From: a virus
Lineage: Duplodnaviria > Heunggongvirae > Uroviricota > Caudoviricetes
DNA length: 39,775 nucleotides
Direction: 5' to 3' (one strand)
IMG/VR virus record: IMGVR_UViG_2872158770_000006
A program made the translations under genes and the position numbers. Of the stretch, positions 15,739 through 36,116 are shown piece by piece. Below the pieces are notes generated by a model that was not told the DNA's origin, made no database searches, and saw nothing but the letters and a program-made list of their open reading frames with translations. How positions within the stretch are numbered: the first letter of the stretch is position 1; the number at the start of each line of letters is the position of its first letter.

Positions 15739-15892
15739 TGCTCCCCCTGAGTAATTACAGGAAGATTACCCGCGCGCGAAACCGTTCTCCTTAACCCCCT
15801 GTTCTGGCCGTTTTCTTACAACAAAAGCCCTTTGTATCAGCCTGTTACGCTTTGCCATCATGACTGAAGAACCAGTCAGAGGGGCAAAAACT

Positions 15893-16729: not shown

Positions 16730-16752
16730 TAAGACAAAGGAGCAAATTTTTT

Positions 16753-17805: not shown

Positions 17806-17850
17806 TCAACTCACGGCGGGCATCATGCCCGCCTGTAACGGAGAGAAAAA

Positions 17851-18651
17851 ATGATTACTCCTGCACAGCAACACTGGCAGAACGTGATGGCACAGCGCGC
17901 AGGCCGGGCGAATGAAGGTGTGGACCACGCCGCGCGTACCGCGCATGAAGAGGTGCTGTATCGTCTGCGTCTGGCACAGGCCCGGCTTAAGGGCGTACAG
18001 GCCAGAAGCGCGAAAGCCGACATCAAAAAAGCGTTGTTGCCGGACTTTTCCGGCTGGATTGAGGGAACGCTGGAGGCTGACGGCGGGCAACAGGACGAAG
18101 TGATTGCCACGCTGATGGTGTGGGCGATTGACTGCGGCGATCTTCCGCTTGCGCTGCGTATTGGTGCGTATGCGGTCCGTCACAACCTCATCATGCCGGA
18201 TAACTTTGGCCGTACTGCTGCCACAGTGCTGACCGAAGAAATCTGCAATCCGGTACTGACGCAGGCCGGGACGGATGCCGACGCGGATTTGTCCGTCTTT
18301 ATCGAACCACTGGACACACTTTGGGAAATTGTCGCCAACCAGGATATGCCGGACGAAGTGCGCGCCAAATTATGCAAGGCGTGCGCCTTTGCCCGCCGTG
18401 GCCTGAGCGATGCGGACAGCATGGCCTCATCACTGAAGCTGCTGCGCGAAGCGATGCATCTGAACCAGAACGCAGGTGTGAAACGCGAGATTGCAACCCT
18501 TTCCCGCGCCCTGAAAAAAGCCGATTCCGCAGCCGCACCAGAAGACGCCAGCGCACAGCAGGCGCAGGACGAAAGCAGCGAAAGTAAAAAGACAACGCGG
18601 AAGCCTGCAACACGAAAAACCACCGCGACGCAGAAGGCGAAGCGCGGTTAA
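17851..18651 (+). CDS. M: Terminase small subunit, P2 gpM family
   Basis: 266 aa; ADMPDEVRAKL and AGVKREI segments match P2 gpM; basic C-terminal tail. Confidence 0.85.
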   Translation: MITPAQQHWQNVMAQRAGRANEGVDHAARTAHEEVLYRLRLAQARLKGVQARSAKADIKKALLPDFSGWIEGTLEADGGQQDEVIATLMVWAIDCGDLPLALRIGAYAVRHNLIMPDNFGRTAATVLTEEICNPVLTQAGTDADADLSVFIEPLDTLWEIVANQDMPDEVRAKLCKACAFARRGLSDADSMASSLKLLREAMHLNQNAGVKREIATLSRALKKADSAAAPEDASAQQAQDESSESKKTTRKPATRKTTATQKAKRG

Positions 18652-18752
18652 CGACTGACCCCGTCAGCGGGCGGCGTGCGCGGTGTTCCGGTTTGGCTCC
18701 GTGACCGTTTACACCGCGCACCCACCGCCCGATTTTTTCAGGAGTGAACCCC

Positions 18753-19247
18753 ATGAGTATGGTTGCCAGAACTGAACCCGGACCCGCAGAGGACGACATC
18801 ACCGACACCGAAGATGGCGATACCCGTATTTCAGCGGGTGCATTCTGGCCGGATATTGTGCTGCGCGAGCTGCGTCTGGCGGTACGACTGCCGGGCCGCG
18901 TGACCACCTCCCGCCTGCTGCATACCGCCACCGGGGCCGTGGCACACGTTACCCGCGAGCTGGAAGCATGGCAGCAGGAACAGCAGGCGGCTGGCCATCA
19001 GACGCTGGCCGATGTTCCGGCACCTGTAATTAACGGAGAAAGCGTCAATCTCTGGCACTGGCGCAATGCTGTTTATACCGCCACACGCGCCCTGATTCTG
19101 GAGCGTTACCGCGATGCGGACACAACGGACAAGGGCGACCGCCGGGCGGACGCACTGGATATACAGACATCGGATTTGTGGCGCGATGTGAGCTGGGCCA
19201 TCTCTGACATTCTGTGCCGCCCGCGAATCTTTGCGGAGTTGTGCTGA
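18753..19247 (+). CDS. L: Head completion protein, P2 gpL family
   Basis: Position and size; ATG at 18753 with AGGAG RBS; stop overlaps the X start. Confidence 0.75.
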   Translation: MSMVARTEPGPAEDDITDTEDGDTRISAGAFWPDIVLRELRLAVRLPGRVTTSRLLHTATGAVAHVTRELEAWQQEQQAAGHQTLADVPAPVINGESVNLWHWRNAVYTATRALILERYRDADTTDKGDRRADALDIQTSDLWRDVSWAISDILCRPRIFAELC

Positions 19248-19444
19248 TGAAAGTGAAGACACTGGAAGGCGACACCGTGGATTCGCTCTGTTTCCGGTAC
19301 TACGGCACGACGCAGGGCGTCACCGAAAAGGTGCTGGATGCCAACCCCGGACTCTGCCGACAGGTATTTCTGGAAGCCGGACAGGAGGTGGAAATGCCGG
19401 AGCCGGAGAAGAAAAAACAACGAGAGATGATACAGCTATGGTAA
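19247..19444 (+). CDS. X: Tail protein X (LysM-like), P2 gpX family
   Basis: MKVKTLEGDTVDSLCFRYYGTTQGVTEKVLDANPGL aligns with the P2 gpX N-terminus. Confidence 0.8.
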   Translation: MKVKTLEGDTVDSLCFRYYGTTQGVTEKVLDANPGLCRQVFLEAGQEVEMPEPEKKKQREMIQLW

Positions 19445-19740
19445 CAGGTTTTTTTCAGCGGGTGAGTGACTGGATCACCTTCTGGGCATCAGTCACAGCC
19501 ACCACAATAGGCGTGATGACCATCAGTGAAAAAATCGCCCTTGCCGGGTTGTTACTCGGTTCTCTGTCTGCATTACATGCCTGGCGACATCGCCGCCTGA
19601 TGGAAACCGCCATGCAGCGTCGCAATGAACTCATCGCCAGTATCCTGGCGCAGTCAGACGCACGGCCACTTCACGACAGTGAGCGTCAGGCTCTGAACAT
19701 TCTGCGGGATAACGATACACATGATAAAGCTGCCCGTTAA
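19438..19740 (+). CDS. Y: Holin (P2 gpY position), two predicted TM helices
   Basis: 100 aa with hydrophobic helices WITFWASVTATTIGVMTI and IALAGLLLGSLSALHAW, then a charged C-terminus. Confidence 0.7.
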   Translation: MVTGFFQRVSDWITFWASVTATTIGVMTISEKIALAGLLLGSLSALHAWRHRRLMETAMQRRNELIASILAQSDARPLHDSERQALNILRDNDTHDKAAR

Positions 19741-20269
19741 ACGTTACGCCGTAGCCGCCATTGTGGCGCTGGGGTTCTCCATTGCCCCTCACAAACTCCG
19801 GACCAGCCCGGAAGCGCAAATCCGCATTGCCACATGGGAGGACTGTCGCGCAACGCCTTACCGGGATATTGCCGGGGTAATGACCGTGGGGTGCGGCTCG
19901 ACCGGGCATGTGGAAAATCGTCTGTACACCGAAACGGAAGTCGCCGGGCGCTGGGTTAATGATATGCAACATGCAGAAAACTGCATAAATCAGAACTTCA
20001 GCGGCAACGCCATGCCACAGTCCGCGTTTGAGGCAATGACAGATGCCGCCTTTAATCTTGGATGCAGAAATCTTATGTGGTTCAGGGATAAGAACCGTAA
20101 CTACCACCGCACCACTATCTGGAAACATGCACAGGCGCACAACTGGCCTGACATGTGCAACAGACTGACTGACTTCGTGAACAGCGGCGGCGAACGCTCA
20201 CAGGGACTGGTTAACCGTCGTACTGATTTTCGTGCATGGTGCTTACGTGACACCGGAGGCCAGTCATGA
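19721..20269 (+). CDS. K: SAR-type endolysin (T4-lysozyme-like muramidase with N-terminal signal-anchor-release domain)
   Basis: N-terminal weakly hydrophobic YAVAAIVALGFSIAP followed by a WEDCRATPYRD...GV.TVGCG catalytic region typical of P1 Lyz / P21 R-type SAR endolysins. Confidence 0.75.
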   Translation: MIKLPVKRYAVAAIVALGFSIAPHKLRTSPEAQIRIATWEDCRATPYRDIAGVMTVGCGSTGHVENRLYTETEVAGRWVNDMQHAENCINQNFSGNAMPQSAFEAMTDAAFNLGCRNLMWFRDKNRNYHRTTIWKHAQAHNWPDMCNRLTDFVNSGGERSQGLVNRRTDFRAWCLRDTGGQS

Positions 20270-20739
20270 AAGTGCGTTACATCCTGATGATGGCACTGAC
20301 CGTCCTCACGCTGCTGACCATAACACTCTGGCAGACATTCAGACTGGGGCAGGAAGACGGACACAACCGTTATACACAGGCGCAACTGGACGATTACAGC
20401 CGGACCCTGAAAGAGGCCGGCACCATCATCAGCACCGCATCCGGTGTACTGCGTGACGTCATGACAGCGCGCCAGAACCGACAACAGGAAGGGGAAATCC
20501 GACGTGAACAGCTACGCAACGATATCACGACAGATGCATGTGCCCGCGCTGTTCCTGACGCTCGCTTTACTGAGCGGTTGCACCAGCACGCAGAACGCGT
20601 CCGCGCCGCCGCCGTCGTTCCGTTTCATCCCGGAAGGGCTGACCGCCCCCGTACTTCCCCCGCCGTTTCCGGTGACGCCATCATGGGGAAACATCGGGAT
20701 ATGGAGCGACAGCCTCATGGACGCACTGGAAACCTGTAA
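20266..20739 (+). CDS. lysB: LysB-like inner-membrane spanin component (Rz-like)
   Basis: N-terminal TM helix ILMMALTVLTLLTITLW followed by a predicted coiled coil; follows the endolysin. Confidence 0.6.
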   Translation: MKVRYILMMALTVLTLLTITLWQTFRLGQEDGHNRYTQAQLDDYSRTLKEAGTIISTASGVLRDVMTARQNRQQEGEIRREQLRNDITTDACARAVPDARFTERLHQHAERVRAAAVVPFHPGRADRPRTSPAVSGDAIMGKHRDMERQPHGRTGNL

Positions 20740-20824
20740 CGCCGATAAGCGGGCCATTGAATTACTGGAACAGCGCAGGCTGCAACGACTGAACAACGAG
20801 GACAACAACCATGCTGAAAACTGA
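20504..20824 (+). CDS. lysC: LysC-like outer-membrane lipoprotein spanin component (Rz1-like), embedded in and overlapping lysB
   Basis: Lipobox LLSGC after a hydrophobic segment; Pro-rich mature region; alternative reading frame overlapping the lysB 3' end. Confidence 0.5.
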   Translation: MNSYATISRQMHVPALFLTLALLSGCTSTQNASAPPPSFRFIPEGLTAPVLPPPFPVTPSWGNIGIWSDSLMDALETCNADKRAIELLEQRRLQRLNNEDNNHAEN

Positions 20825-21905
20825 TTCCCTGCGTGAAGCCATGACCCGTTCATGCCGGTGGTGTCATGCCAACCCGGAAAAATTCACCATTTTCGTGGAG
20901 AGCGGCAACATTGAAACGACCGGAGAAACCCCATCGTTTGTTTACCGCTATCAGATAGTGATGTTTGTCATGGATTACGCCGGAGAGCTGGACGACCTCA
21001 CGCTGCCGCTGCTGGCGTGGTTATCCGAAAATCAGCCACAGTTGTTGCTCAATCCGGAGCGTAATCAGGACATCAAATTTTCCGCCGTTATCAATGACGA
21101 TGACAGCGCCGATCTCCTGTTTACGCTCCCCCTGCGGGAACGCGTTCGCATCACGCGCAGCAGTCAGGGCACACCGCAGGCAGAACACCTGCCGGAGCCA
21201 AAACCCCGCCTGCCCTCTTCCGAAGGCGACTGGTCGCATGTATTCCAGGATGTGACGTGGGGGAAAGCGATGGATAAGGCATTCACCCGCGTGGATGAAA
21301 CCTTTGAGGCTATCCGCGACAGCCTGAATCAGCAGGCCATTAATAACATCGCCAGAAAGCTGGCACAGGATTTACGCCGCGCCCAGCAGGCGCGTATCCG
21401 GTCACAGAAAGCGCCGGACGGGACCGCATGGACACCACGCAGACGCCGCGTAACCCGGATACAGGAGCGCATTCGCTTTATCTGGAATAACGAAGCACGC
21501 ACGCTGAAAAACTGGCATCACGACACGGGGAAATACGGGCGAACCATCACCGGGTGGGATGAGGATAAAAACAATATCCGCACGTTTTACCGGGATGACA
21601 TCGACCGTTTTCTGGAAATACGCACCCGGCGCATCAACCAGGACAGCACCAGGCGCGTCTCCATGTTCGTAAAACTGCGCACCGCCCGCTACCTGAAAGC
21701 CCGTGCAGATGCTTCCGGTGTGACGGTGGGTTACAGCGGCGTGGCCGCACGTATTGCACGCGTTCATCAGTTCGGTGAGCGCGATCAGGTTGCGCCGGGC
21801 ATTTTCACCGATTACCCGGTACGTGAGCTGCTGGGTATCAGCCAGGCAGATGAGCGCCTGATTTATAACACGGTGCTGGGCCGGATTGCGGAGGCTGTAC
21901 GATGA
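20811..21905 (+). CDS. R: Tail completion proteins R and S encoded as one continuous 364-aa ORF
   Basis: N-terminal about 150 aa (MLKTDSLREAM...LPLLAWLSENQPQLL) resembles P2 gpR; the C-terminal half (…VHQFGERDQVAPG…YPVRELLGISQADERLIYNTVL…) resembles gpS / virion morphogenesis proteins; no intervening stop. Confidence 0.7.
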   Translation: MLKTDSLREAMTRSCRWCHANPEKFTIFVESGNIETTGETPSFVYRYQIVMFVMDYAGELDDLTLPLLAWLSENQPQLLLNPERNQDIKFSAVINDDDSADLLFTLPLRERVRITRSSQGTPQAEHLPEPKPRLPSSEGDWSHVFQDVTWGKAMDKAFTRVDETFEAIRDSLNQQAINNIARKLAQDLRRAQQARIRSQKAPDGTAWTPRRRRVTRIQERIRFIWNNEARTLKNWHHDTGKYGRTITGWDEDKNNIRTFYRDDIDRFLEIRTRRINQDSTRRVSMFVKLRTARYLKARADASGVTVGYSGVAARIARVHQFGERDQVAPGIFTDYPVRELLGISQADERLIYNTVLGRIAEAVR

Positions 21906-22483
21906 GCGCAGAACTCATGCGACTGCTGAGCAATATCATCCGCACCGGGATCATCTCTGAAGTTGATGAGGAATCCTGGTGCGTGCGCGTTCGCAGCGGC
22001 GAACTGGAAACAGGCTGGCTGCGCTGGAACACCACGCGCGCGGGAGACTTCAACGTGTGGTTTCCGCCATCACCAGGCGAACAGGTGGCAATTGCCTGCA
22101 TCGGCGGCAACCCGGAAACCGCCATGATAATCGGCAGCCTGTGGAGTGATGCCATTCCGGCACCCGGCAAAAGCCTGAAAGAAATCGTGGTCAGCGCGCC
22201 GGACGGCGCGGTGTTCCGCTACGACGCGGACGCAGGCGCACTGAGCGCAAGCGGCATGAAAACGGCCACTTTGCAGGCATCCATCAGCGTGACACTGAAC
22301 ACGCCTGTCGTGGAATGCACAGACCTTCTGAGAACAGCGACGCTTGACGTCACAAAAGGGGGAACGATGAGCGGCAATATCACGCACAGCGGCGGCGATT
22401 TCACCTCAAACGGCATCACAGTGCATACGCATAAGCACGGTGGCGTTAAAGGTGGCAGCGATTCGACAGGAGGCCCGCAGTGA
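21902..22483 (+). CDS. V: Baseplate spike/assembly protein, P2 gpV family
   Basis: 193 aa; position, size and a Gly-rich C-terminus. Confidence 0.8.
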   Translation: MSAELMRLLSNIIRTGIISEVDEESWCVRVRSGELETGWLRWNTTRAGDFNVWFPPSPGEQVAIACIGGNPETAMIIGSLWSDAIPAPGKSLKEIVVSAPDGAVFRYDADAGALSASGMKTATLQASISVTLNTPVVECTDLLRTATLDVTKGGTMSGNITHSGGDFTSNGITVHTHKHGGVKGGSDSTGGPQ

Positions 22484-22830
22484 CAACCCGCTACACAGGA
22501 ATGAACCCGGACGGGACGGGAAACCTGAACGATATGGCGCACCTGAAACAGTCAGTCAGGGACATCCTGACCACCCCGCTGGCAAGCCGGGTTATGCGAC
22601 GGGAATATGGCAGCCTTGTGCCTGATTTGATTGACGAACCCATGAATAACACCACGCGTCTGCAATGCATGAGTGCTACCGTGATTGCACTGACACGATG
22701 GGAACCACGCATTGCCCTGAACGCCATCGACGTTGTCTGGAAGGCAGGAGGCCACGCCGGGGTGACGCTGTCGGGCACTGTCATGCAGACCATGCAGAAT
22801 GTTGAATTAACCATCACGCTGAGGGAGTAA
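22480..22830 (+). CDS. W: Baseplate protein, P2 gpW family
   Basis: 116 aa, GTG start overlapping the V stop; size and position match. Confidence 0.8.
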   Translation: MTTRYTGMNPDGTGNLNDMAHLKQSVRDILTTPLASRVMRREYGSLVPDLIDEPMNNTTRLQCMSATVIALTRWEPRIALNAIDVVWKAGGHAGVTLSGTVMQTMQNVELTITLRE

Positions 22831-22833
22831 ATC

Positions 22834-23730
22834 ATGCCTGCCGTTGACCTTTCCCAGTTACCGGAACCCGCCATCATCGCGGAGCCTGACTTTGAGGCAA
22901 TTCTGGCTGACACAAAGGCCATGATGATTGCAGCTTATCCCGCCGAACAGCGTGAAGTCGTCTCCGCCGCACTGGAACTGGAATCGGAACCCCTGAACGT
23001 TATCGCTCAAACCATGTCGTTTCGTGAAATGCTGTTACGCCAGCGGGTCAATGAGGCCGCACGCGCCTGCATGTTGAGCCACAGCGCCGGAACAGACCTG
23101 GACAACCTCGCGGGCAATATGAACACAAAGCGCCTGGTTATCACTCCGGCAACGGATACCACCGACGTGGTGATGGAGAACGACACCTCGCTGAGACTGC
23201 GGGCGCAGCGGGCGTATGACGGCCTGAGTGTTGCAGGCCCGTCAGGCGCATACGAGTATTTTGCCCGCAGCGCCAGCGGTCTGGTGCGCGATGCGCGGGC
23301 CATCAGTCCGTCTCCGGCAAATGTGACGGTTTCCATCCTGTCCACTGAGGGCGACGGCACAGCAACGGAGGCGTTGCTTAATACCGTTCGCGCCGTTCTG
23401 AATGCAGAGGATACCCGCCCGGTGGCCGACCGCCTGACCGTACAGAGTGCCAGAATCGTGACATGGCGGCTGAATGCAAAACTGTACTTTTACCCCGGTC
23501 CGGAATCCGAACCTATTCTGGCTGCGGCTGAATCGTCGTTCAGGAAGTGGCTGGCTGAGCAGGGGCTTATCGGTCAGGACGTGGCGTTGTCCGCCATTGC
23601 TGCCGCACTGCATGTGCACGGTGTGCAACGCGTGGAGATAATCGAACCCACACAGAATATGGCCATCAGCGACATACAGGCGGCGCGCTGTGAGTCATTC
23701 ACCATCAGCGAAGGTGGGCGTAATGAGTAA
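22834..23730 (+). CDS. J: Baseplate protein, P2 gpJ family
   Basis: 298 aa; size and position. Confidence 0.8.
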   Translation: MPAVDLSQLPEPAIIAEPDFEAILADTKAMMIAAYPAEQREVVSAALELESEPLNVIAQTMSFREMLLRQRVNEAARACMLSHSAGTDLDNLAGNMNTKRLVITPATDTTDVVMENDTSLRLRAQRAYDGLSVAGPSGAYEYFARSASGLVRDARAISPSPANVTVSILSTEGDGTATEALLNTVRAVLNAEDTRPVADRLTVQSARIVTWRLNAKLYFYPGPESEPILAAAESSFRKWLAEQGLIGQDVALSAIAAALHVHGVQRVEIIEPTQNMAISDIQAARCESFTISEGGRNE

Positions 23731-24253
23731 TTCACTGTTACCACCATCAGCCAGCAATTTCATGCGTTGTGCCGAAGCCGTCGGAACACGCATTACAGAC
23801 ATTCCGGCAGACCTCAACACGCTGTGGTCGCCGGACACCTGCCCGGTGCATCTGCTGCCTTATCTCGCCTGGGCGTTTTCCGTTGACCGCTGGGATCGCA
23901 ACTGGCCGGAAGAGACAAAGCGACAGGTGATTCGTGATGCATGGCTGATACACCGACACAAAGGAACCATCAGCGCCCTGCGACGGGCCATTGAGCCGCT
24001 GGGATACCTCATTCGCGTGTCTGAGTGGTGGGAGTTCAACGGCGAACCCGGAACATTCAAGATTGATGTTGGCACGCTGGACAGTGGCGTGACGGAGGAA
24101 ATGTATCTGGAAATGGAGCGGTTGATTGCTGATGCCCGCCCGGTCAGCCGCCACATGACAGGGCTGAATATCATTCAGGAGATTCAGGGAGATATTTTCG
24201 CGGCAGCAGCAACTTACGACGGTGAAGTCATTACCATTTATCCGGACGATTAA
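23723..24253 (+). CDS. I: Baseplate protein, P2 gpI family
   Basis: 176 aa from ATG overlapping the J stop. Confidence 0.8.
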   Translation: MSNSLLPPSASNFMRCAEAVGTRITDIPADLNTLWSPDTCPVHLLPYLAWAFSVDRWDRNWPEETKRQVIRDAWLIHRHKGTISALRRAIEPLGYLIRVSEWWEFNGEPGTFKIDVGTLDSGVTEEMYLEMERLIADARPVSRHMTGLNIIQEIQGDIFAAAATYDGEVITIYPDD

Positions 24254-24255
24254 GC

Positions 24256-26226
24256 ATGAGTACCACAACACGAAAATTTAAAACCATTATCACCGATACG
24301 GGTGCAAAAAAATTAGCGCAGGCAACCGCGCCAGATGGGAAACCTGTCCGCCTGACACATATGGCCGTGGGTGACGGCGGCGGTACTTTACCCACGCCAG
24401 ACAGTAAGCAGACCCGTCTTGTGCATGAGGTGTGGCGACATACCGTTAATCGCGTCACCCTGGACGCAACACATCAGAACCACATTATTGCGGAGCTGGT
24501 TATTCCTCCTGAAACGGGCGGATTCTGGATCCGGGAAATTGGTGTGTTTGATGAGCACGGCGATTTGATCGCGGTAGGCAATACTGCCGAAAGTTACAAG
24601 CCAACCGTTGCCGAAGGATCCGGACGTGCACAAACATTTCGCACCATTCTGACCGTATCCAGCACTGCCACTGTGGCGCTTACCGTGGATAACACCATGG
24701 TGATGGCCACAGTGAATTACGTGGATGACAAACTGAAAGAGCATGAACAGTCACGACGTCACCCGGACGCCTCGCTGACCGCAAAAGGCCTTGTCCAGCT
24801 CAGCAACACCACCAACAGCACGTCTGAAACGCTGGCAGCGACACCAAAAGCCGTTAAGGCAGTAATGGATGAAACGAACAAGAAAGCCCCATTAAACAGC
24901 CCGGCACTGACCGGAACGCCAACAACACCAACTGCGCGACAGGGAACGAATAATACCCAAATCGCAAGCACGGCTTTCGTTATGGCTGCGATTGCCGCAC
25001 TTGTAGACTCTTCGCCTGATGCACTGAACACACTGAACGAGCTGGCGGCGGCGCTGGGCAACGACCCGAATTTTGCGACCACCATGACTAACGCGCTTGC
25101 GGGTAAGCAACCGAAAGATGCCACTCTGACGGCGCTGGCGGGGCTTGCTACTGCGGCAGACAGGTTTCCGTATTTTACGGGGAATGATGTCGCCAGCCTG
25201 GCAACCCTGACAAAAGTCGGGCGGGATATTCTTGCGAAATCGACCGTTGCCGCCGTTATCGAATACCTCGGTTTACAGGAAACGGTAAATCAGGCTTCTG
25301 GCGCATTACAGAAAAACCAGAACGGCGCAGATATTCCGGGGAAAGATACCTTCACCAAAAATATTGGTGCCTGCCGCGCATATAGCTCATGGCTGAATAT
25401 TGGTGGCGATAGTCAGGTCTGGACAACCGCGCAATTTATTTCGTGGCTGGAGAGTCAGGGAGCATTTAACCATCCTTACTGGATGTGCAAAGGCTCATGG
25501 GCTTATGCAAATAATAAGGTCATTACAGATACAGGTTGCGGAAATATTTGTCTTGCAGGTGCTGTGGTGGAAGTTATTGGCACTCGCGGCGCAATGACCA
25601 TACGCGTTACCACGCCGAGCACGTCCAGCGGTGGCGGAATTACTAACGCTCAATTCACTTATATTAATCATGGTGATGCTTACGCTCCTGGCTGGCGACG
25701 AGACTACAACACGAAAAATCAACAACCTGCATTTGCTTTAGGGCAAACAGGAAGCACTGTCGGAAATGATAAAGCTGTTGGCTGGAACTGGAATAGCGGG
25801 GTCTATAACGCAAACATTGGTGGCGCATCGACATTAATCCTCCACTTCAATATGAATACGGGGAGCTGCCCTGCTGTACAGTTCCGCGTGAATTACAGGA
25901 ACGGCGGTATTTTTTATCGTTCAGCGCGTGATGGTTATGGCTTTGAAGCTGACTGGTCAGAGTTTTACACCACAACCCGCAAACCCTCTGCGGGAGATGT
26001 TGGTGCATATACGCAGGCAGAATGTAACTCAAGGTTTATTACAGGTATTCGCCTTGGTGGTCTGTTATCTGTTCAGACATGGAATGGTCCCGGATGGTCT
26101 GACAGGTCAGGTTATGTTGTTACCGGTTCCGTTAACTCAAACAGAGATGAACTAATTGATACAACTCAGGCAAGGCCAATTCAGTATTGCATTAATGGGA
26201 CGTGGTATAACGCGGGGAGTATTTAA
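24256..26226 (+). CDS. H: Tail fibre protein (P2 gpH family): constant N-terminal part joined to a variable C-terminal part inside the invertible segment
   Basis: 656 aa; the crossover site lies in-frame at 25256-25281; C-terminus ...IQYCINGTWYNAGSI is shared with the alternative exon. Confidence 0.85.
   Translation: MSTTTRKFKTIITDTGAKKLAQATAPDGKPVRLTHMAVGDGGGTLPTPDSKQTRLVHEVWRHTVNRVTLDATHQNHIIAELVIPPETGGFWIREIGVFDEHGDLIAVGNTAESYKPTVAEGSGRAQTFRTILTVSSTATVALTVDNTMVMATVNYVDDKLKEHEQSRRHPDASLTAKGLVQLSNTTNSTSETLAATPKAVKAVMDETNKKAPLNSPALTGTPTTPTARQGTNNTQIASTAFVMAAIAALVDSSPDALNTLNELAAALGNDPNFATTMTNALAGKQPKDATLTALAGLATAADRFPYFTGNDVASLATLTKVGRDILAKSTVAAVIEYLGLQETVNQASGALQKNQNGADIPGKDTFTKNIGACRAYSSWLNIGGDSQVWTTAQFISWLESQGAFNHPYWMCKGSWAYANNKVITDTGCGNICLAGAVVEVIGTRGAMTIRVTTPSTSSGGGITNAQFTYINHGDAYAPGWRRDYNTKNQQPAFALGQTGSTVGNDKAVGWNWNSGVYNANIGGASTLILHFNMNTGSCPAVQFRVNYRNGGIFYRSARDGYGFEADWSEFYTTTRKPSAGDVGAYTQAECNSRFITGIRLGGLLSVQTWNGPGWSDRSGYVVTGSVNSNRDELIDTTQARPIQYCINGTWYNAGSI
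25256..25281. repeat. Left recombination site (gix/hix-like) for the serine invertase, inside the fibre gene
   Basis: TTATCGAATACCTCGGTTTACAGGAA; inverted repeat of the site at 28331-28356; matches the remembered gix/hix consensus TTATC.AAACC.CGGTTTACAGGAA. Confidence 0.75.
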
Positions 26227-26228
26227 CG

Positions 26229-26762
26229 ATGATGCACTTAAAAAACATTTCTGCTGGTAATCCTGAAACAAAAGAGCAATACCAGCTAACGAAACAATTT
26301 AACATCAAATGGCTTTATACAGAGGATGGGAAAAACTGGTATGAGGAACAAAAGAACTTTCAGCCTGATACGTTGAAAATGGTCTATGACCACAACGGCG
26401 TTATTATTTGTATTGAAAAGGATGTTTCAGCAATTAATCCGGAAGGCGCAAGCGTCGTTGAGGTTCCTGATATTACAGCAAATCGCCGGGCTGATATTTC
26501 AGGTAAATGGATGTTCAAAGATGGCGTAGTGATAAAGCGAACTTATACCGGGGAAGAGCAGAGGCAACAAGCGGAAAATGAAAAGCAAAGCCTGCTACAG
26601 CTCGTCAGGGATAAAACCCAGCTATGGGACTCACAGCTACGGCTGGGCATTATTTCCGACGAGAATAAACAAAAATTAACCGAGTGGATGCTCTATGCGC
26701 AGAAGGTCGAATCCACAGACACCTCCAGCCTGCCAGTAACGTTTCCCGAACAACCAGAATGA
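26229..26762 (+). CDS. G: Tail fibre assembly chaperone, P2 gpG family
   Basis: 177 aa, MMHLKNISAGNPETKEQYQL...; paralogous to the minus-strand copy at 26791-27318. Confidence 0.8.
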   Translation: MMHLKNISAGNPETKEQYQLTKQFNIKWLYTEDGKNWYEEQKNFQPDTLKMVYDHNGVIICIEKDVSAINPEGASVVEVPDITANRRADISGKWMFKDGVVIKRTYTGEEQRQQAENEKQSLLQLVRDKTQLWDSQLRLGIISDENKQKLTEWMLYAQKVESTDTSSLPVTFPEQPE

Positions 26763-26765
26763 AAC

Positions 26766-26790
26766 AAGGCCCGATATCGGGCCTTAATTT
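26766..26790. terminator. Bidirectional terminator between convergent G and G'
   Basis: Hairpin AAGGCCCGATATCGGGCCTT flanked by T-rich sequence on both strands. Confidence 0.6.
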
Positions 26791-27318
26791 TTACTCAGGC
26801 TTTTGTGGCCATTCTGGCTTTGCCGTATCCACACGGCTGACCAGAACACTGTAGCGTTCCCATGCTTCCAGTCGTGTGCGTTCCTCGTCCGTCGCCATAT
26901 TCAGCCTGACAGCGCGTTCCAGCGGCTGGATGACTGATTCAGCTTCGGAAAGCAATGCGGCCTTTTGTGATTCGGCCTGTTGTTGCTGTTCGTCAGCCGT
27001 ATAAATCCGTTTAACCACAGCTCCGTCCTTAAACATCCACTTACCGGAATCATCAGCACGACGATTAGCTGTAATATCAGGAACCTCAACGACGCTATAA
27101 CCTTCAGGGTTAAGCGTGGAGGCATCTTTGGTGATGGCGACAATAATATTATTTGCATCGTAAACAATCTTTATTGTGTCTGGCTGAAAGTTCTTCACTT
27201 CCTCATACCAGTTTTTTCCGTCCTCAGAGTAAAGCCAGATGACTCCGTGCTTCTTTGTTAACTCATACTGCTCCACTGTTTTAGCATTACCTGCTTTTAT
27301 GTTCTTTAAGTGCATCAT
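26791..27318 (-). CDS. Alternative tail fibre assembly chaperone (G'), expressed after inversion
   Basis: [20 protein letters not shown]... closely parallels G; lies inside the invertible segment on the opposite strand. Confidence 0.75.
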
Positions 27319-27319
27319 A

Positions 27320-28330
27320 TTAAATACTCGCCACATTATACCAAGTGCCATTTATATACTTTTGCACTGGCCTGTAATGAACGCCTGCAATATTATCGGC
27401 AGAGTTTTTTCCGGTATCCTGTACGTTAATCCCCGTCAGTACATAGCCTGACGGGCACTGAAAATTCCATGTTTGCCAGTTGTTCACTCCATAATATTGC
27501 TGTGAACCAAGTCGAACATCTTTCACATATCTGGAATCAAAATTGCCATAGTTGCCGGGAATAACTTGCGAGCCGCAAAGCCAGTTCCCGTTATTATCCA
27601 TGTACGCCTGACCATCGGTGCCATTGGCTGTCCTTGAGTTATTAATCATGTAGATGCCAAATTGCTTATTTCCCAGACCGCCAATCATAAATTTGCGGTC
27701 GGCATGGTCCTGACGGAGCAAAGCCTGAGCACCATCAGTGGATACCGCATTACGTCCCAAAATAACATTCTGGTCACGCATATGAATCCACATGCCGGTA
27801 CTACTGTTAATTGCAAAACGGTTTGCAAATATATCCCCTGTAACATCAAGACCATGCCCCATGCTTATCCGGCCAGTTCTGAGATTAAGCGTAAAGGGGC
27901 GTAGTGGCCCTATATTACCATTTTCCCCTTCATTCTCTCGTGTAGGGATGATATGCAGGCATTCTTCAGAACGACGAAAAATGGCACCAAAAGATGAATT
28001 AAATATCCTCAGTGCATTGACTGTCGATATTTTCACTTCACTGCTGAAAAGGGCTTCAACAAGAACAGACAAAGCATTCCATTTAAGATTCATCAGGTCT
28101 TTAGGCCGGGTGCCAATGATGCGGTGTCTCCATTTGAAATATTCATTGCCGTTGTTGCCTGTTTCAAACCACATGTAGGAATCGGTGTCTGCATCCGAAT
28201 TATTTTTAAACCCAATCTTTGCCCAGTCAGTATTTCGAATCCAGGCAAGGATTGAGTCGTTTTCAAAAGTAAGTCCACCGGACAACGTATCGCCATTTTT
28301 TTGCACGGCGTTACCAGCCTTGTTTACCGT
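27320..28330 (-). CDS. Promoterless alternative tail-fibre C-terminal segment (Hv'); becomes fused in-frame to the constant part after inversion
   Basis: Open frame runs from the right crossover site without its own start context; reading frame through the site matches the fibre gene frame (…[22 protein letters not shown]…); C-terminus …[12 protein letters not shown] parallels the resident variable end. Confidence 0.7.
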
Positions 28331-28356
28331 TTCCTGTAAACCGAGGTTTTAGATAA
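28331..28356. repeat. Right recombination site (gix/hix-like)
   Basis: TTCCTGTAAACCGAGGTTTTAGATAA, a near-exact match to the remembered gix/hix consensus, 55 bp upstream of the invertase start. Confidence 0.8.
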
Positions 28357-28410
28357 TGGCCGTTTCCGGCCTGCATGGCATGATTTGCGCTTTTGGACGG
28401 GAGATTCAGC

Positions 28411-28998
28411 GTGCTGATTGGCTATGTAAGGGTATCAACAAATGACCAGAATACAGACCTGCAACGAAACGCTCTTGTTTGTGCAGGATGTGAACAAATA
28501 TTTGAAGATAAATTAAGCGGGACAAAGACAGACCGACCGGGATTAAAACGCGCTTTAAAGCGCCTTCAAAAAGGTGACACGCTGGTTGTCTGGAAACTGG
28601 ATCGCCTCGGGCGAAGCATGAAACATCTGATTTCTCTCGTCGGGGAACTACGGGAGCGAGGAATTAATTTTCGCAGTCTGACCGACAGCATAGATACATC
28701 TTCTCCAATGGGGCGTTTTTTCTTCCACGTGATGGGTGCCCTGGCTGAAATGGAACGTGAATTAATTGTTGAACGTACACTGGCCGGACTGGCGGCAGCA
28801 CGCGCACGGGGGCGCACAGGCGGACGTCGACCGAAGCTGACAAAAGAACAGCATGAGCAAATAGCAAGGCTGATCAAAAACGGGCACGACAGAAAACAAC
28901 TGGCAATAATTTACGGCATTGGTATATCGACGATTTATCGTTACCACCCCGCAGGAGAATCAATCGGAACAATAGAGAAGAGTCAGGAAACAAAATAA
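28411..28998 (+). CDS. Serine DNA invertase of the Gin/Hin/Cin/Pin family
   Basis: GTG start; MLIGYVRVSTNDQNTDLQRNAL... with catalytic Ser in YVRVST; near-identical to remembered Mu Gin over the first roughly 140 aa; C-terminal HTH. Confidence 0.9.
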   Translation: MLIGYVRVSTNDQNTDLQRNALVCAGCEQIFEDKLSGTKTDRPGLKRALKRLQKGDTLVVWKLDRLGRSMKHLISLVGELRERGINFRSLTDSIDTSSPMGRFFFHVMGALAEMERELIVERTLAGLAAARARGRTGGRRPKLTKEQHEQIARLIKNGHDRKQLAIIYGIGISTIYRYHPAGESIGTIEKSQETK

Positions 28999-29030
28999 CC
29001 GCTAATCTGACCATTAGCGGTTTTTGTGTT
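28999..29030. terminator. Bidirectional rho-independent terminator between the invertase (+) and U (-)
   Basis: Stem CCGCTAAT/ATTAGCGG with loop CTGACC, followed by TTTTTGTGTT on the plus strand and TTATTTTGTTT on the minus strand. Confidence 0.6.
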
Positions 29031-29033
29031 AAA

Positions 29034-29528
29034 TCAGAACAACCCTTTAACTGAACTGGCCGCGCTGTTAAGGGATGATGTTACCTTATCTTTGAAGCCG
29101 GACAGCATATCGCTGAACGATGAGGATTGCAGGCGCTCCCGCAAATCCTCATCACAGCGTTCAAGAGTCAGTGAAAATTCTATCTTTTTCGCCTTACCGT
29201 AGCGATCAAACTCGGAGCGGGTCGTATTCGTTTCGGTCAGGACATACATGCCGTAAATCTGCCCGACGCCATCAATCAGAGGCCAGGGTCGTCCTGTATA
29301 CGCCTGCGTGGTCAGCAGCGACAGCGACACTTCGCCACCTGTAATTTCAGGATAAAGCACACCAGAAAGAACGATGCGCTCATCACCTGCACCGATATAC
29401 TGCCAGCTTGCCGAACGGTTAACGCGTTCATTTTTCACATGCCGCCAGCTTTTGTTTTGCTGTAACTGCTGATGCGGCAATGTACGCAGCTCAAAAACAA
29501 ACATGCCGTAGATCATCATCATGGCCAT
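29034..29528 (-). CDS. U: Tail protein, P2 gpU family
   Basis: 164 aa; SWRH, TGG, LIDG and SEF segments align with remembered P2 gpU. Confidence 0.8.
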   Translation of the reverse strand: MAMMMIYGMFVFELRTLPHQQLQQNKSWRHVKNERVNRSASWQYIGAGDERIVLSGVLYPEITGGEVSLSLLTTQAYTGRPWPLIDGVGQIYGMYVLTETNTTRSEFDRYGKAKKIEFSLTLERCDEDLRERLQSSSFSDMLSGFKDKVTSSLNSAASSVKGLF

Positions 29529-29534
29529 GACTCC

Positions 29535-32378
29535 TCAATCTTTATCGTAAAAACTGCCACGCCCGGCACGGGCGCGCCGTTCCATTTCTGCCCTGACCAT
29601 TTCACCGACCAGTTTCGCCAGTTCGCGGGGATTCTGCGTAACAACGTTATGCAGATGAACATGAATTTCACCACCAAATCCGGAGGCAACAGGCTCCCGG
29701 TTACGGGAAGTTACAGGAACTGATGCCACTGGAGAGCGTATGGCCTCCGCCACCGGGCGGGAGCTGGCCGCAACAACAGGGACCAGCGCCGGAGGCAGCG
29801 GAGCCGGGACCACGGGTGTGATATTAATTGCGGGGGCAGGCTTACTGACCTGCGCAATCTTCCGCTCCTGCCACTCCCCACGAACAGCAAGTGCGCGGGG
29901 CAGGTTCTTAAAGACAATATCGCCGGGGCCAATGCGTTTTTTCGTCTCATCAACCAGCTTACCTGTGTTATCAGCAATTTTGCTGAGTCTGCGTAGCGTC
30001 CCGGTATTGCTGTCTGTGAGCGGTTTGTTGTCTTTGGGTTTATCACCTCCGGTGCCATTGCCATTTTCCACAGGCTTCGGCGGATTGATTTTCGCCAGGT
30101 CCCCCTGAAGCAAGGCAACCTTGTCCTGAAGAATGGCCGCACGCTGTGCGTCTTCGATTTTCTTGCGCGCCCTTTCCGCTTCATCCGGAAGGACGCCAAG
30201 TTTTTCAAGTATCCACGCCAGCGTATCCAGTAGCATTTTTGCAGGTGTCAGAACAAGTTGTAACGCACCGCCAAGAACGTTACCGAATATCTCGCCAGCA
30301 CTGGCACATTTATCCAGCGTTTCCTTGCTGGACTCCATCGGTGACAGCAGCGATTTAAACCAGTTAAAGACCTGAATAATCCCATCGCGCACGACATCAA
30401 AAACAGGGCCAAACCGTTCAAAGGTTTCGCGCAACGGGGTCAGCCTTTCCATAATCCCGCTGAACACCCCGGCAAAAAATGCCCTGATGGGATCCCAGTA
30501 TTTCCAGATAAGAACGGCAGCTCCGGCAAGCGCAGCCACGATAAGACTAACCGGACTGAACAGCGCCCCGATAGCGCCACCAAGTAAAGAAACGGAACCC
30601 GTCACCATTCCCCATAATGCAGGCAGAACCCTGACAACATTCATTGATTCGGTCAGGAGAGAAAAACCGAGACGCAACGTAGCCAGCTTCCCGTGAAGCA
30701 CCCCAATAACCAGAGACAACGAACCAACCGTTGCTGTTGTCGCCAGCAGTGCGCCTCCCGCTATCAGTAACTGGCGCGTCAGTGCCGGGTGGGCCTGCGC
30801 CAGCGCCGTCACCTTTGAGACAACCCGCGTGAGCCACTGCGTGACAGAACGCAGCGGACCGTCAACCAGATCACTGATGCGAATACGCAGACCTTCCCAT
30901 GCACTGCCGAGTGATTTCAGGTTGCCATCAAGGTTATTGGCCATAACCTTTGCCGTGCGTTCTGCCTCACCGCGCGCGCCTTCAAGTTCTTTTCTCAGTT
31001 TGGCTAAGAAGCCGTCACCTGCCGCATCAACGAGGCCCATAAATGATGTGAAAGCCTCTTCTCCGGCAATGTCCTTAAAGAACGATACCCGGTCAACCTC
31101 CCCGTATTTGCGGGTGGCTTTATAGAGATCGGCCAGCACATTCTCCATCGGGCGCATTTTGCCTTTGGCGTCAGCAACTGACACCCCCAGCTCTTTCAGT
31201 GCTTCTGCCGCTGCCTTTGGCGGTGATGACAGATTGGCCAGGCTTTTACGCAACGCTGTACCTGCATCACTCCCCCTGATACCCATCTTCGCCAGCACGC
31301 CCGCCATCGCTGCGGCCTGCTCCAGCGATATTCCCAGCTTACCCGCCACCGGACCTGCATATTTCATGGTTTCGCCCAGTGCGCGAAGGTCAGTGTTGGT
31401 ACGGGTAAACGCTGCGGTAAGTGTGTCACCGACCCGGTCCATCTGGTCAGCAGAGAGGCCGAACTGCGTCAGGATATTGGAACCAATATCCGCCGTCTCG
31501 CCGAGGTCCATACCGCCAGCCGTTGCCATGCTCAGCACGCCGGGAAGCGCAGCCTGAATGGCCTGCGGTGTGAAACCAGCCATTGCAAGAAATGCCTGTC
31601 CACTGGCGGCATCGCCTGCGGTGAACTGCGTTTCAGAGCCAAGTTTTAACGCCTGCTCACGCAGCGCCTTAAACTGCGGGCTGTTTTTATCGATTCGCGT
31701 CAGTGCCTGAACACGGGACATCTCTTTCCCGAACCCGATAGCGGGCTGCAAAAAACGCCCGGCAGCATAGCCGCCCGCTGCCGCCGCACCTGTTGCCAGC
31801 GCACCACCTGTTTTCAGTTTTCCCGCTGTTTCCTGCGCGCGTGAATACCGCTCACGCGCCTGCGTTACACGCGCAAGCGCCCGCCGTTCGCGTTCAAGCT
31901 GGTTGTTGTATTGTCCGGTGCGTCTGATGGCCTGCTGGATGGTGTTATCGCTGCCTGTCAGGGAAATGCCGTGGCGTTTCAGCTCTCCGCCAAGTTCCCG
32001 CATTTTCTGAATTTCCCGTGTGCGCGATTCATTCAGGCGTTCAAGCCGGGTGCTTAACTGCTGCATCAGCTTTTGTTGTTTTTCGCTGAGCACTGTACCC
32101 GTGCGTTGTAACTGATTAAGGGCGTTAAGCTGGCGTCGTGCTTTCACGATGCCCGCATCCGCTTTACTGACAGCGTCACGGGCGCGCTCAAATGAACGCG
32201 CCTGACGCTCGAGATTTTTGATCGCCCCCTGCGTTCGCTGGATGGAGTCACCAAACTGCCCCATCAGGCGGCGGGCGTTTTCGGCAGGCCGGGTCAGCCT
32301 GTCAACGGCGCTGAAAGCGACCCGGATATCAAGAGTCTTCATTGTCTGCATTCCCGCTGCGAAGTGCCGCCCGCTCAC
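29535..32378 (-). CDS. T: Tail tape measure protein, P2 gpT family
   Basis: 947 aa, N-terminal coiled coil, central Ala/Gly-rich hydrophobic stretches; typical tape-measure composition and position. Confidence 0.85.
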   Translation of the reverse strand: MSGRHFAAGMQTMKTLDIRVAFSAVDRLTRPAENARRLMGQFGDSIQRTQGAIKNLERQARSFERARDAVSKADAGIVKARRQLNALNQLQRTGTVLSEKQQKLMQQLSTRLERLNESRTREIQKMRELGGELKRHGISLTGSDNTIQQAIRRTGQYNNQLERERRALARVTQARERYSRAQETAGKLKTGGALATGAAAAGGYAAGRFLQPAIGFGKEMSRVQALTRIDKNSPQFKALREQALKLGSETQFTAGDAASGQAFLAMAGFTPQAIQAALPGVLSMATAGGMDLGETADIGSNILTQFGLSADQMDRVGDTLTAAFTRTNTDLRALGETMKYAGPVAGKLGISLEQAAAMAGVLAKMGIRGSDAGTALRKSLANLSSPPKAAAEALKELGVSVADAKGKMRPMENVLADLYKATRKYGEVDRVSFFKDIAGEEAFTSFMGLVDAAGDGFLAKLRKELEGARGEAERTAKVMANNLDGNLKSLGSAWEGLRIRISDLVDGPLRSVTQWLTRVVSKVTALAQAHPALTRQLLIAGGALLATTATVGSLSLVIGVLHGKLATLRLGFSLLTESMNVVRVLPALWGMVTGSVSLLGGAIGALFSPVSLIVAALAGAAVLIWKYWDPIRAFFAGVFSGIMERLTPLRETFERFGPVFDVVRDGIIQVFNWFKSLLSPMESSKETLDKCASAGEIFGNVLGGALQLVLTPAKMLLDTLAWILEKLGVLPDEAERARKKIEDAQRAAILQDKVALLQGDLAKINPPKPVENGNGTGGDKPKDNKPLTDSNTGTLRRLSKIADNTGKLVDETKKRIGPGDIVFKNLPRALAVRGEWQERKIAQVSKPAPAINITPVVPAPLPPALVPVVAASSRPVAEAIRSPVASVPVTSRNREPVASGFGGEIHVHLHNVVTQNPRELAKLVGEMVRAEMERRARAGRGSFYDKD

Positions 32379-32858
32379 GCCAGCTAACCACTTCGCCGGG
32401 CGTCATCATGAAGATTTCGGCGGGCGACCAGTTAAAAATGGCGGCAATATCCGCCACAAAGTCTTCTATGTGCTCAAAGCACACAACCGTGATCAGGCTT
32501 CCGTCGCCTGTTCGTTCTTCTCGCCAGAGTCCGCACCGCTCAAAAAATTTACGGCAACCACACATAACTGAATAAAGTCACGGGATGCCATTTTTTTGAT
32601 CGTCACTTCATCCAGTCGCGGTGATGTCACGCGTGACAGCAGCGTAAACATGGATTCCGCTTTCAAATTCAGCACATCAGACAGCGACAAATCTCGCAGA
32701 GATCCAGCCTGCTCAATAGCCCCGGTGATCTCCACATACGTGATTTTTTCGCCGCCTCGCTCAATTGGTTGGGTAAGTTTTACGCCACGCTCACTGGTTT
32801 CTTTCACAGTGTCAGCAACGACCGTGTTTTCGGTATCGATGTTTTTCGTCTCTTTCAT
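32329..32858 (-). CDS. E: Tail assembly chaperones E and E+E' (programmed -1 frameshift); E alone is 32493-32858
   Basis: Slippery heptamer T_TTT_TTG (minus strand, complement of 32541-32547) 16 codons before the E stop; the -1 frame continues as ...FFERCGLWREERTGDG... to 32329, overlapping the T start. Confidence 0.75.
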
Positions 32859-32912
32859 CAGGAAACTCCTTTCAGTCAGAGGCGACGCACTGCGCCGCCT
32901 GCATATTACTTA

Positions 32913-33425
32913 TCAGCCAAGCCCGAGCGCGGAACGGATGCGATCGGGCACAATGTCCCTGCCGTCCTTCCGGTAAATGAAGTTCAGCAGGTCAATCTCC
33001 CACAACGGGCGATCGTTAACACTCAGCTTGTAGTAGGTGTTTTTAATGGCGTAAGTGTGTGATGTGGCTTCGCCCTGTTTGGCTTCCCCCATATCAATTT
33101 CCGTCACACGTCCGCGCATTTCGACTTCATACAGGTCGCTTTCAGCGTCGGTGTAGTATTCACCCGCAAAACGCAGCAGCGTACCGTCAATCGTGCCGCC
33201 ATACTTAAGGAACAGCTCACGAACTGCGCCCCCCATGACAAAGCTCGCATCAAGCGCGGAGTCATCCAGGCCGAGATCAATACTTACCGCTCCCATCATG
33301 CCACCACCCCGGTAGCTGTCGGTTTTGCGCGTCAGCTTAGGCAGAGTGACGGACGTCACCTTACCCACTTCGTTTTCACCATCCACAAACAGCGTAAAAA
33401 AGCGAAGATGTTTTGGTACAGCCAT
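32913..33425 (-). CDS. FII: Tail tube protein, P2 gpFII family
   Basis: 170 aa; size and position immediately downstream of the sheath gene. Confidence 0.85.
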   Translation of the reverse strand: MAVPKHLRFFTLFVDGENEVGKVTSVTLPKLTRKTDSYRGGGMMGAVSIDLGLDDSALDASFVMGGAVRELFLKYGGTIDGTLLRFAGEYYTDAESDLYEVEMRGRVTEIDMGEAKQGEATSHTYAIKNTYYKLSVNDRPLWEIDLLNFIYRKDGRDIVPDRIRSALGLG

Positions 33426-34609
33426 CAGGCACCTCCCAGCACCGCAAATGCGGGACCAAAGAATTCATCAGTAAACGACTGGTAAAGCTCCATGTCTTCC
33501 AGCGGGGGAACAGGCGTATATTTGTAGCGAATACGCACGCGCCCCTGACGTAAATTCGTGGTGCCGTTATCCACCACGTCATACCAGCACGACGCCCCAA
33601 TCAGTTTCCCGGCAGTAACCAGTGAATCCAGTTTTGCCCTGATGGCACCGATAACATCCTTCACGTTCGCAGGCGTCAGTGGACTGTCGATGGTTTCAAA
33701 CTGCGCTTCCGCAATTGAATCAGCCAGCACCTGTGCGGTTCGGGTATACACCTCAAAGATGTAGGCGTTCGTTTCCGGTGTGCGGTTGCCCCAGAAGCGG
33801 AACCCGTTGCGACGAATAATGGTCGTGATTTCTTTGTTGTTGAGGCTGTTGGCATCACTGTCTTCGGCCTGCAACGACCAGAACACATGCCTGGACATCC
33901 CCAGCACATTTTTAACCGGAACGTTGGACAGCGATTTGTGCCAGCCCTGCTCATGGTCAATGTACGCACGAAGGCCGCACGCATAGGCAGGCGCGGGGAA
34001 CGTTTCGTTTTTGCCACTTTTCGGGTTGTAGGCGATGAAGTCCGGCCATAAGAGCATCACCTCACGTTCGTTGAATTTCTGGCGGTAGGTAATTGCCTCA
34101 GCCATCGTGTTACAGTCATGACATGAGGCATACACAAACGCGCGCAGTTTACCCGCAATCACGCACAGGGATTTTGTCACCGCCTCCGTGTCCAGCTCCG
34201 GCGCGGCCAGAATACGCGGACGGTATCCGATGCTTTCATCCTGCTCTGCAACAAGCAGCGCATACATCCCCGTATAGCTGCCGTCAGATTCAGAACCACC
34301 GATAACCAGTTGATCCTGCGTTTTTCCGTCTTCTTCTTTGTGTTCAGCCACGCGAACGACGATCACCTTTGTGCTCACCTGGTCTGCGATGGCCTTAAGC
34401 GCACGATAAAGCGTCCCCGTTGTTCCGCATTTTCCCAGCACGTCATTGACGCGGGGCAGCAGTGTGGGCTTGTTCAGCGGGAACAGCTCCGCGTCCGCAT
34501 CATCCGCCGTTGCCACGATACCGATAACGCTGGAATCAACATCGTTAATCGCTGTTACCAGGTCGGTATTTTCCGTAACACGGGCACCATGAAAACGAGT
34601 TTCACTCAT
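33425..34609 (-). CDS. FI: Contractile tail sheath protein, P2 gpFI family
   Basis: 394 aa; size and position; start overlaps FII. Confidence 0.9.
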   Translation of the reverse strand: MSETRFHGARVTENTDLVTAINDVDSSVIGIVATADDADAELFPLNKPTLLPRVNDVLGKCGTTGTLYRALKAIADQVSTKVIVVRVAEHKEEDGKTQDQLVIGGSESDGSYTGMYALLVAEQDESIGYRPRILAAPELDTEAVTKSLCVIAGKLRAFVYASCHDCNTMAEAITYRQKFNEREVMLLWPDFIAYNPKSGKNETFPAPAYACGLRAYIDHEQGWHKSLSNVPVKNVLGMSRHVFWSLQAEDSDANSLNNKEITTIIRRNGFRFWGNRTPETNAYIFEVYTRTAQVLADSIAEAQFETIDSPLTPANVKDVIGAIRAKLDSLVTAGKLIGASCWYDVVDNGTTNLRQGRVRIRYKYTPVPPLEDMELYQSFTDEFFGPAFAVLGGA

Positions 34610-35876: not shown

Positions 35877-36116
35877 GCAACTTAAATGTATTAACTCAGA
35901 ACGGATCAACACACTCACAACATAGAGTCAATATAGCTGCTCGCTTTGTTCCAGCAAGGATGCCTATTTCTAAGGAAAAACAGAGCAGAAACATATGGTG
36001 TTTTCCTACCTGACATCAGGGGTGGTAGACTGGCCCCCTGAATCTCCAGACAACCAGTATCACTTAAATAAGTGATAGTCTTAATACTAGTTTTTAGACT
36101 AGTCATTGGAGTACAG

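Follow-up and report, generated by a model that had tools for sequence, protein, structure and literature searches.

A probable two-state, Gin-type tail fibre switch in a P88-like prophage of Escherichia coli/Shigella

The DNA considered here (the window) is a stretch of 39,775 nucleotides (nt) held in IMG/VR as virus record IMGVR_UViG_2872158770_000006 (Caudoviricetes). It runs from the host gene btuC through an integrase gene to ogr and hok, and contains a prophage of E. coli/Shigella that is P88-like (Xuanwuvirus, Peduoviridae). The subject of this analysis is a 3.1-kb segment of the tail gene region that carries two alternative tail fibre ends with their chaperones, is bounded by a pair of inverted crossover sites and has the gene of a Gin-type DNA invertase beside it. 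A first-pass annotation, made from the sequence without database searches, had described this locus as an invertible fibre switch embedded in a P2-type tail module. The surrounding genes are indeed of the P2 type, V, W, J, I and H being followed by U, T, FII, FI and D, and the Pfam domains Tail_P2_I, Phage_P2_GpU, Phage_tube, Phage_sheath_1 and Phage_GPD are found among them.

The fibre gene, H, is an open reading frame (ORF) of 656 amino acids (aa) at 24256-26226 on the plus strand. Codons 1-338 (24256-25269) lie outside the invertible segment and encode the constant N-terminal part of a P2-type H protein (Pfam Phage_tail_fib, 2.4e-54, and Phage_fiber_2). The remainder, at 25270-26226, is the variable C-terminus expressed as the segment now lies; this Mu S'-type end has 96.9% aa identity to the variable part of Mu S' and matches entry 8ju3 of the Protein Data Bank (PDB), an S/S' chimera, with E = 2e-224. 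Directly behind it on the same strand (26229-26762) is the gene of its 177-aa chaperone, the equivalent of P2 G, which is of the Mu U' type (97.7% aa identity to Mu U'; Caudo_TAP, 7e-37). The second set is encoded on the minus strand and is convergent with the first. Its chaperone, of the Mu U type, comprises 175 aa from an MMHLKN start (26791-27318; Caudo_TAP, 2.5e-37; 90.3% aa identity to Mu U; 5e-102 against PDB chain 5yvq_B), the ORF as listed beginning further upstream, at 27351 (186 aa). The silent alternative fibre C-terminus at 27320-28343 is of the Mu/SfMu S type, 66.7% identical in aa sequence to residues 170-503 of Mu S and matching 5yvq_A, from the Mu S-U structure, at 1e-139; it lacks a start codon of its own, and its frame runs uninterrupted as far as the right crossover site. 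The two Caudo_TAP chaperones are 57.6% identical to one another, and both fibre ends close with INGTWYN(A/V)(G/A)SI, one of them reading ...QYCINGTWYNAGSI. Between the convergent chaperone genes, pattern matching detected a GC-rich hairpin with T-runs on both strands (26765-26786), likely to be a bidirectional terminator; as predicted, it would stop late transcripts from entering the silent set in antisense.

The left crossover site (25256-25281, plus strand) is of the gixL type and reads TTATCGAATACCTCGGTTTACAGGAA, its halves TTATCGAATACC and GGTTTACAGGAA flanking a central TC. The right site (28331-28356, minus strand) is of the gixR type and reads TTATCTAAAACCTCGGTTTACAGGAA, with the halves TTATCTAAAACC and GGTTTACAGGAA on the minus strand, again around TC. 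The two 26-bp inverted sites of the first-pass annotation are therefore present, although they are not perfect copies: 24 of the 26 positions are equal when the sites are compared in inverted orientation, both mismatches falling in the outer half-site. The longest identical run common to both is ACCTCGGTTTACAGGAAACGGTAAA, of 25 nt, and the inverted repeat reaches inward over approximately 65 nt at 80% identity (25252-25316 and 28296-28360). Relative to the Mu gix sites, TTATCCAAAACCTCGGTTTACAGGAA, the sites of the window deviate at one or two positions, all in the outer half-site, the left site differing at two. SfMu has an identical right site, and E. coli MSI001 carries a pair identical to that of the window. 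Paired inverted 26-bp sites sharing an asymmetric central dinucleotide are thus found, as in other systems of the Din family of DNA invertases.

No further site accompanies this pair. Throughout the window only these two sites occur at up to three mismatches, where shuffled sequences give an expectation of 0.00 matches, and neither a scan allowing up to nine mismatches nor a separate scan with the core motif detected a credible third site. A multi-state shufflon resembling the three-repeat locus of enteropathogenic E. coli (EPEC) was considered and rejected on the basis of these scans; the locus has two sites, whereas more than two characterise multi-site systems such as Min of p15B, the EPEC locus itself and the R64 shufflon.

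The crossover dinucleotide falls within codon Leu338 of H, and inverting 25269-28343 in silico replaces the present 656-aa protein with an uninterrupted fibre ORF of 678 aa, H', residues 1-345 being common to both. Hence the first-pass annotation read the coding arrangement correctly, in that a fibre C-terminus with its chaperone lies on one strand and an alternative pair on the other, the frame through the site is kept in both orientations and the two ends share the INGTWYN motif. All that distinguishes a G-segment-type cassette is found here: a constant N-terminus fused in frame to either of two C-termini, one chaperone for each end in convergent arrangement, and homology to Mu S, U, U' and S'.

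The 195-aa product of the gene just outside the right site (28411-28998, plus strand) belongs to the small serine recombinases (Pfam Resolvase, 1.3e-50, and HTH_7, 1.6e-13). The likely start of the gene is the GTG at 28411, which has GGGAG upstream, the mechanically called ORF (28393-28998) opening instead with TTG at 28393. The first-pass description of this protein as Gin-like is confirmed by its matches to the Gin structures 4m6f (E = 3.7e-101) and 3uj3 (E = 2e-100) and by 85.6% aa identity to Mu Gin over residues 1-181, only three residues differing within 1-130. In the alignment with 4m6f the catalytic Ser9 is present (VRVSTNDQ). This residue is the nucleophile of Gin, and the change M114V renders Gin independent of Fis (PMC3575834); Met114 is wild type in the window, which would go with Fis dependence, as in Gin. 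[quoted passage not shown] The protein hence combines the features of the Din family, namely resolvase and helix-turn-helix domains, the catalytic serine with its surrounding core and the residues that contact Fis or the enhancer. The DNA-binding domain (aa 131-195) diverges from that of Gin, and is about equally close to Hin.

Members of this family also have a recombinational enhancer in cis within the 5' end of the invertase gene, and such an element is indicated here by sequence identity alone. The first 110 nt of the gene (28411-28520) are 100% identical to gin of Mu and of SfMu, and include the candidate position of the Fis-binding sis element at 28429-28496 (plus strand). The cin enhancer is annotated at the equivalent position, nt 19-86 of cin, in the P7 record. 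Beyond the 5' end the gene is a mosaic, as the similarity to SfMu stops at 28766: it is 90-100% identical to Mu/SfMu gin up to approximately 28766-28799, after which similarity to Mu collapses (28766-28998, codons ~120-195). A hairpin with T-runs on both strands (28997-29022, pattern match) separates the invertase gene from gpU, which is convergent with it, and is likely to act as a terminator, as predicted from its sequence. A weak GATAAT can be discerned by eye in the outer half of the right site.

The orientation of the segment was then compared between genomes, by building an inverted version of 24200-29100 and searching complete E. coli genomes, with matches counted at a coverage of at least 80%. 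The window orientation was found in 71 genomes and the inverted orientation in 63. Separately, an exact look-up of the 656-aa fibre protein placed it on 12 contigs, one of them from the NCBI draft GCA_012216005.1. The inverted query has its best match in E. coli FDAARGOS_943, where it aligns as one piece at 99.9% identity. Relative to the window itself, the prophage of this strain is collinear over 11990-25296 at 99.84% identity (a left flank of 13.3 kb) and matches 28316-34008 at 97%, while 25252-28360 aligns, at 99.78%, to the opposite strand. Around both junctions the flanks keep their outer half-sites, with the two diagnostic differences, and the inner arms are swapped. The crossover must therefore have taken place within the 25 identical nt, which include the central TC.

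The same difference separates much more closely related prophages. Strains GF8 and GF161, both from chicken meat in Switzerland, are 99.97% identical over 21 kb, and the inverted 3.1-kb segment is the sole structural difference between them. The inverted segment of this pair (positions 9185-12290) contains six mismatches in 3.1 kb, as against five in 18 kb of flanking sequence, an excess that might reflect consensus noise from the assembly of a population of mixed orientation. E. coli MSI001 (NZ_CP076645.1) harbours two related prophages with the cassette, at approximately 1.573 Mb and 1.262 Mb, in opposite orientations. Sequencing of EPEC E2348/69 cultures has revealed both orientations side by side in P2-like prophages (Goldberg et al. 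2014, PMC4272514). Inversion, the remaining property expected of a Din-family segment, is therefore seen by genome comparison, in strains other than the source strain. An inactive invertase and the lack of detectable inversion had been named at the outset as grounds for abandoning the switch; neither applies, the catalytic residues being intact and the segment lying both ways round among near-identical prophages.

These comparisons bear upon three other explanations. The first, that the inverted repeat is a product of chance or an annotation artefact and that there is no switch, has a negligible probability: no matches at all are expected in shuffled sequence, the sites are one or two positions from Mu gix, both orientations occur naturally with breakpoints inside the sites, and nothing was found in favour of it. 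The second would attribute the differences in orientation to RecA-dependent homologous recombination between short inverted repeats. The imperfect repeats extend over approximately 65 nt, and the comparison alone narrows the exchange no further than the 25-nt identical stretch. That stretch is nevertheless the longest identical run available, and about 25 nt of identity is approximately the minimum for RecA recombination. Furthermore, a dedicated invertase lies alongside with an active site and enhancer that appear intact, and the near 1:1 ratio of orientations, together with the difference between the sister isolates, implies frequent switching. Recombination through RecA is therefore considered a very slight possibility.

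A third explanation retains site-specific inversion and assigns it, wholly or in part, to another Din-family invertase acting in trans, such as Pin of e14 or, where a Mu-like prophage is present, its Gin. In favour of this, the enzymes Gin, Cin, Pin and Hin are interchangeable, and the matching E. coli genomes carry a median of two matches to the query, and up to twelve. Since no defect is seen in the resident gene, and help from another enzyme would supplement its activity and not supplant it, this seems improbable, if less so than the involvement of RecA.

The relationship of the segment to that of Mu is closer than resemblance. The first-pass annotation had called it Mu G-segment-like, which named the right kind of system but understated the relationship: at 89-95% nt identity to Mu/SfMu, the segment is, on sequence grounds, a homologue of the Mu/SfMu G segment and not merely an analogue, joined to the constant part of a P2-type H. 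By megablast, 25249-28766 is 95.4% identical to Shigella phage SfMu, and the segment is 87-92% identical to Mu, D108, P7 and P1. Upstream of 25249 no similarity to Mu or SfMu is found, except for a fibre-repeat patch of 72% identity. The order of parts is that of Mu, with the constant fibre part, gix, a variable end and its chaperone, the convergent chaperone and variable end, a second gix and the invertase. The constant part differs, being the 338-aa N-terminus of a P2-type H instead of the ~170 aa of Mu Sc, and Mu is a transposable phage whereas this element is a P2-like prophage. Since the expressed end is of the S' type and its chaperone of the U' type, the sequenced orientation corresponds to Mu G(-).

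The closest sequence match is to SfMu and takes in the entire segment together with the right site and, from the start of the invertase gene, 356 nt. The identities to the Mu proteins follow the same pattern, being reported as 96, 97, 90 and 65% for SfMu (PMC4406740) and standing at 96.9, 97.7, 90.3 and 66.7% in the window. By contrast, the flanking genomes are unrelated, and the left site of SfMu has a C-to-G change next to the core (ACGTCGG) where the window has the consensus ACCTCGG; the authors of the SfMu study suspect that this change impairs inversion (PMC4406740). Cin of the P1/P7 C segment and Pin of the e14 P segment are, like the invertase of the window, members of the Din family. 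The C segment is 87-91% identical to the segment in nt sequence, and the invertase has 74.6% aa identity to P7 Cin. In P1 and P7, however, the invertase gene is located at the opposite end of the segment, with its 3' end overlapping cixL, and the constant fibre parts are different. The loci of EPEC E2348/69 are alike in that homologues of Hin flip tail fibre segments in P2-like prophages (PMC4272514), although one of them has three repeats and four variants where the window has two sites.

The stretch shared with SfMu (25249-28766) begins at the left site and ends within the invertase gene, and its flanks are without similarity to SfMu. One reading of these boundaries, though an unlikely one, is that the cassette may move as a unit between unrelated phage lineages, the left junction being made by the invertase at gix between co-resident prophages and the right by homologous recombination in the invertase gene. 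The boundaries also fit ordinary homologous recombination at the conserved site sequence, and the data do not separate the two. If unit movement were true, such switches would be portable docking points for the swapping of receptor-binding modules.

Taken as a whole, the locus is very probably a two-state, Gin-type invertible host-range switch in a P88-like prophage of E. coli/Shigella, and the interpretation offered by the first-pass annotation is supported. This account builds on observation as regards the sites, the kept reading frame and the homologies, the catalytic and Fis-contact residues, which are intact, and the natural occurrence of either orientation among near-identical prophages; where it extends to Fis dependence, the inversion rate in the source strain, the receptors recognised and the production of particles, we infer. 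In the mechanism envisaged, the late tail operon would read through codons 1-338 of H into the 3.1-kb segment, so that in the present state H would be completed by the S'-type receptor-binding end and followed by the U'-type chaperone. Dimers of the invertase would bind both 26-bp sites, and these would synapse with the Fis-bound enhancer in the 5' end of the invertase gene on supercoiled DNA. Cleavage at the central TC through Ser9, rotation of one pair of subunits by 180 degrees and religation would then leave 25269-28343 inverted. The constant part would thereby be joined in frame to the S-type end, with the U-type chaperone behind it, bringing this pair under the late promoter. The former pair would fall silent, there being no promoter for it, no start codon on its fibre end and a predicted terminator hairpin at the centre of the segment.

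By these means a lysogen population would release particles of two receptor specificities. In Mu, G(+) particles infect E. coli K-12, and G(-) particles infect E. coli C, Citrobacter, Enterobacter, Erwinia and Shigella sonnei (summarised in PMC4406740), while the receptor of SfMu is the O-antigen of S. flexneri (PMC4406740). The host ranges to be expected of the two states would follow this Mu literature.

Several observations weigh against this interpretation. The evidence for flipping is comparative, coming from near-identical prophages and not from this very lysogen. A simple scan found no sigma-70-like promoter on the plus strand upstream of the invertase gene. The two sites of the window are unequal at two positions of the outer half-site, which may affect the rate, but an identical pair is found in MSI001, a strain with related prophages in both states. 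Lysates of SfMu, which has the most similar segment, showed no difference in host range (PMC4406740). Finally, two insertion sequence (IS) elements lie in the prophage, which may be non-inducible as a result; in a non-inducible prophage, flipping would be without consequence for host range.

The first of these IS elements, a member of the IS3 family of 1260 bp in the early region (4211-5470), has ORFs of 100 aa (HTH_Tnp_1) and 272 aa (rve) and cuts a gene of the DUF4761 family. It is absent from a prophage of E. coli 12689 that is 99.9% identical to the left of the insertion and 99.2% identical to the right, and may block early transcription and so prevent induction. A scan of genome contigs for the exact junction of element and prophage (4180-4238) gave no match. 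The second IS element, at 36028-37356, is another IS3-family member and IS2-like in size, its ORFs being of 136 and 301 aa; it is situated between D and a PIN-domain gene and is absent from a relative in E. coli UTAK-22, in which the right flank is otherwise 99.96% identical. The prophage could thus have been made defective while the switch stays intact and flips, leaving a residual segment with no present role in host range, like the P segment of e14; both insertions are missing from close relatives, and flipping in the defective e14 prophage is documented (PMC4272514). Conversely, the tail and lysis region (11990-25296) keeps its collinearity at 99.84% with FDAARGOS_943, neither element lies in a structural gene, and the ORFs of V, W, J, I, H, U, the tape measure, tube and sheath proteins and D, together with ogr, are uninterrupted. 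A crippled prophage is hence a genuine possibility, though an unlikely one, and it bears upon the consequence of flipping and not upon its mechanism.

The wider prophage agrees with its placement in Xuanwuvirus, in that the baseplate and tail genes are of the P2 type and the FI-U operon is reversed, with a layout as in phage 520873. The P88-like relatives (phages P88, 520873 and 503458, and the prophages of MSI001, GF8, GF161 and FDAARGOS_943) share the order V, W, J, I, H, tfa, then tfa' and H', the invertase, the reversed U-T-E-FII-FI operon, and D and ogr. They differ from the window in their alleles, in orientation and in the two IS insertions. At up to three mismatches, phage 520873 yields one crossover site, its right site being found at four. 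In the window the reversed operon, which encodes the sheath, tube, E, tape measure and U proteins, occupies 29034-34609 on the minus strand, and D and ogr then follow on the plus strand. The orientation of this operon relative to H-G differs from the gene order of P2. That it represents an old inversion made by the invertase was considered and rejected, as there are no gix-like sites at the borders of 29034-34609 and the layout is typical of the genus.

At the same btuC-ihfA site, the E. coli UTAK-22 relative has a single fibre gene with its chaperone followed by a serine O-acetyltransferase gene, and neither an invertible cassette nor an invertase. This alternative cargo implies that the slot between the chaperone and gpU (777-1349 in that relative, approximately 26790-29000 in the window) is variable. 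Between D and ogr lies a gene for a 500-aa protein with an N-terminal PIN_4 domain (37438-38940, plus strand), which is also found in relatives and looks like prophage cargo. A PADLOC scan for defence genes, covering this protein and three small flanking ORFs, produced no convincing hit, the matches being weak (E = 4e-5 to 5e-3). Genes for ParM and a partition protein (10154-11429, plus strand), likewise carried by relatives, are segregation genes of the plasmid type and hint at a possible plasmid-like phase.

The system is one that is already known and annotated. The same architecture with identical sites is present in many E. coli genomes and RefSeq phages, and in the P88-like relatives the annotation already names a DNA invertase, a tail fiber and a tail fiber assembly protein. 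A paper on phage P88 (PMC5285337) makes no mention of an invertase or of inversion, and related RefSeq records label the silent end either "hypothetical protein" or "tail fiber protein". The locus of the window is better annotated as one phase-variable fibre gene with two alternative 3' ends than as a fibre gene and an orphan "hypothetical protein". A receptor-binding cassette of Mu/SfMu type on a P2-type fibre shaft may also be useful in engineering the host range of phages or tailocins. The division of complete genomes into 71 and 63, together with GF8 and GF161, offers clean evidence from nature that Gin-type inversion occurs in P2-like prophages, and confirms textbook biology rather than extending it. 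The orientation in which the window is assembled is best read as a snapshot of a mixed population.

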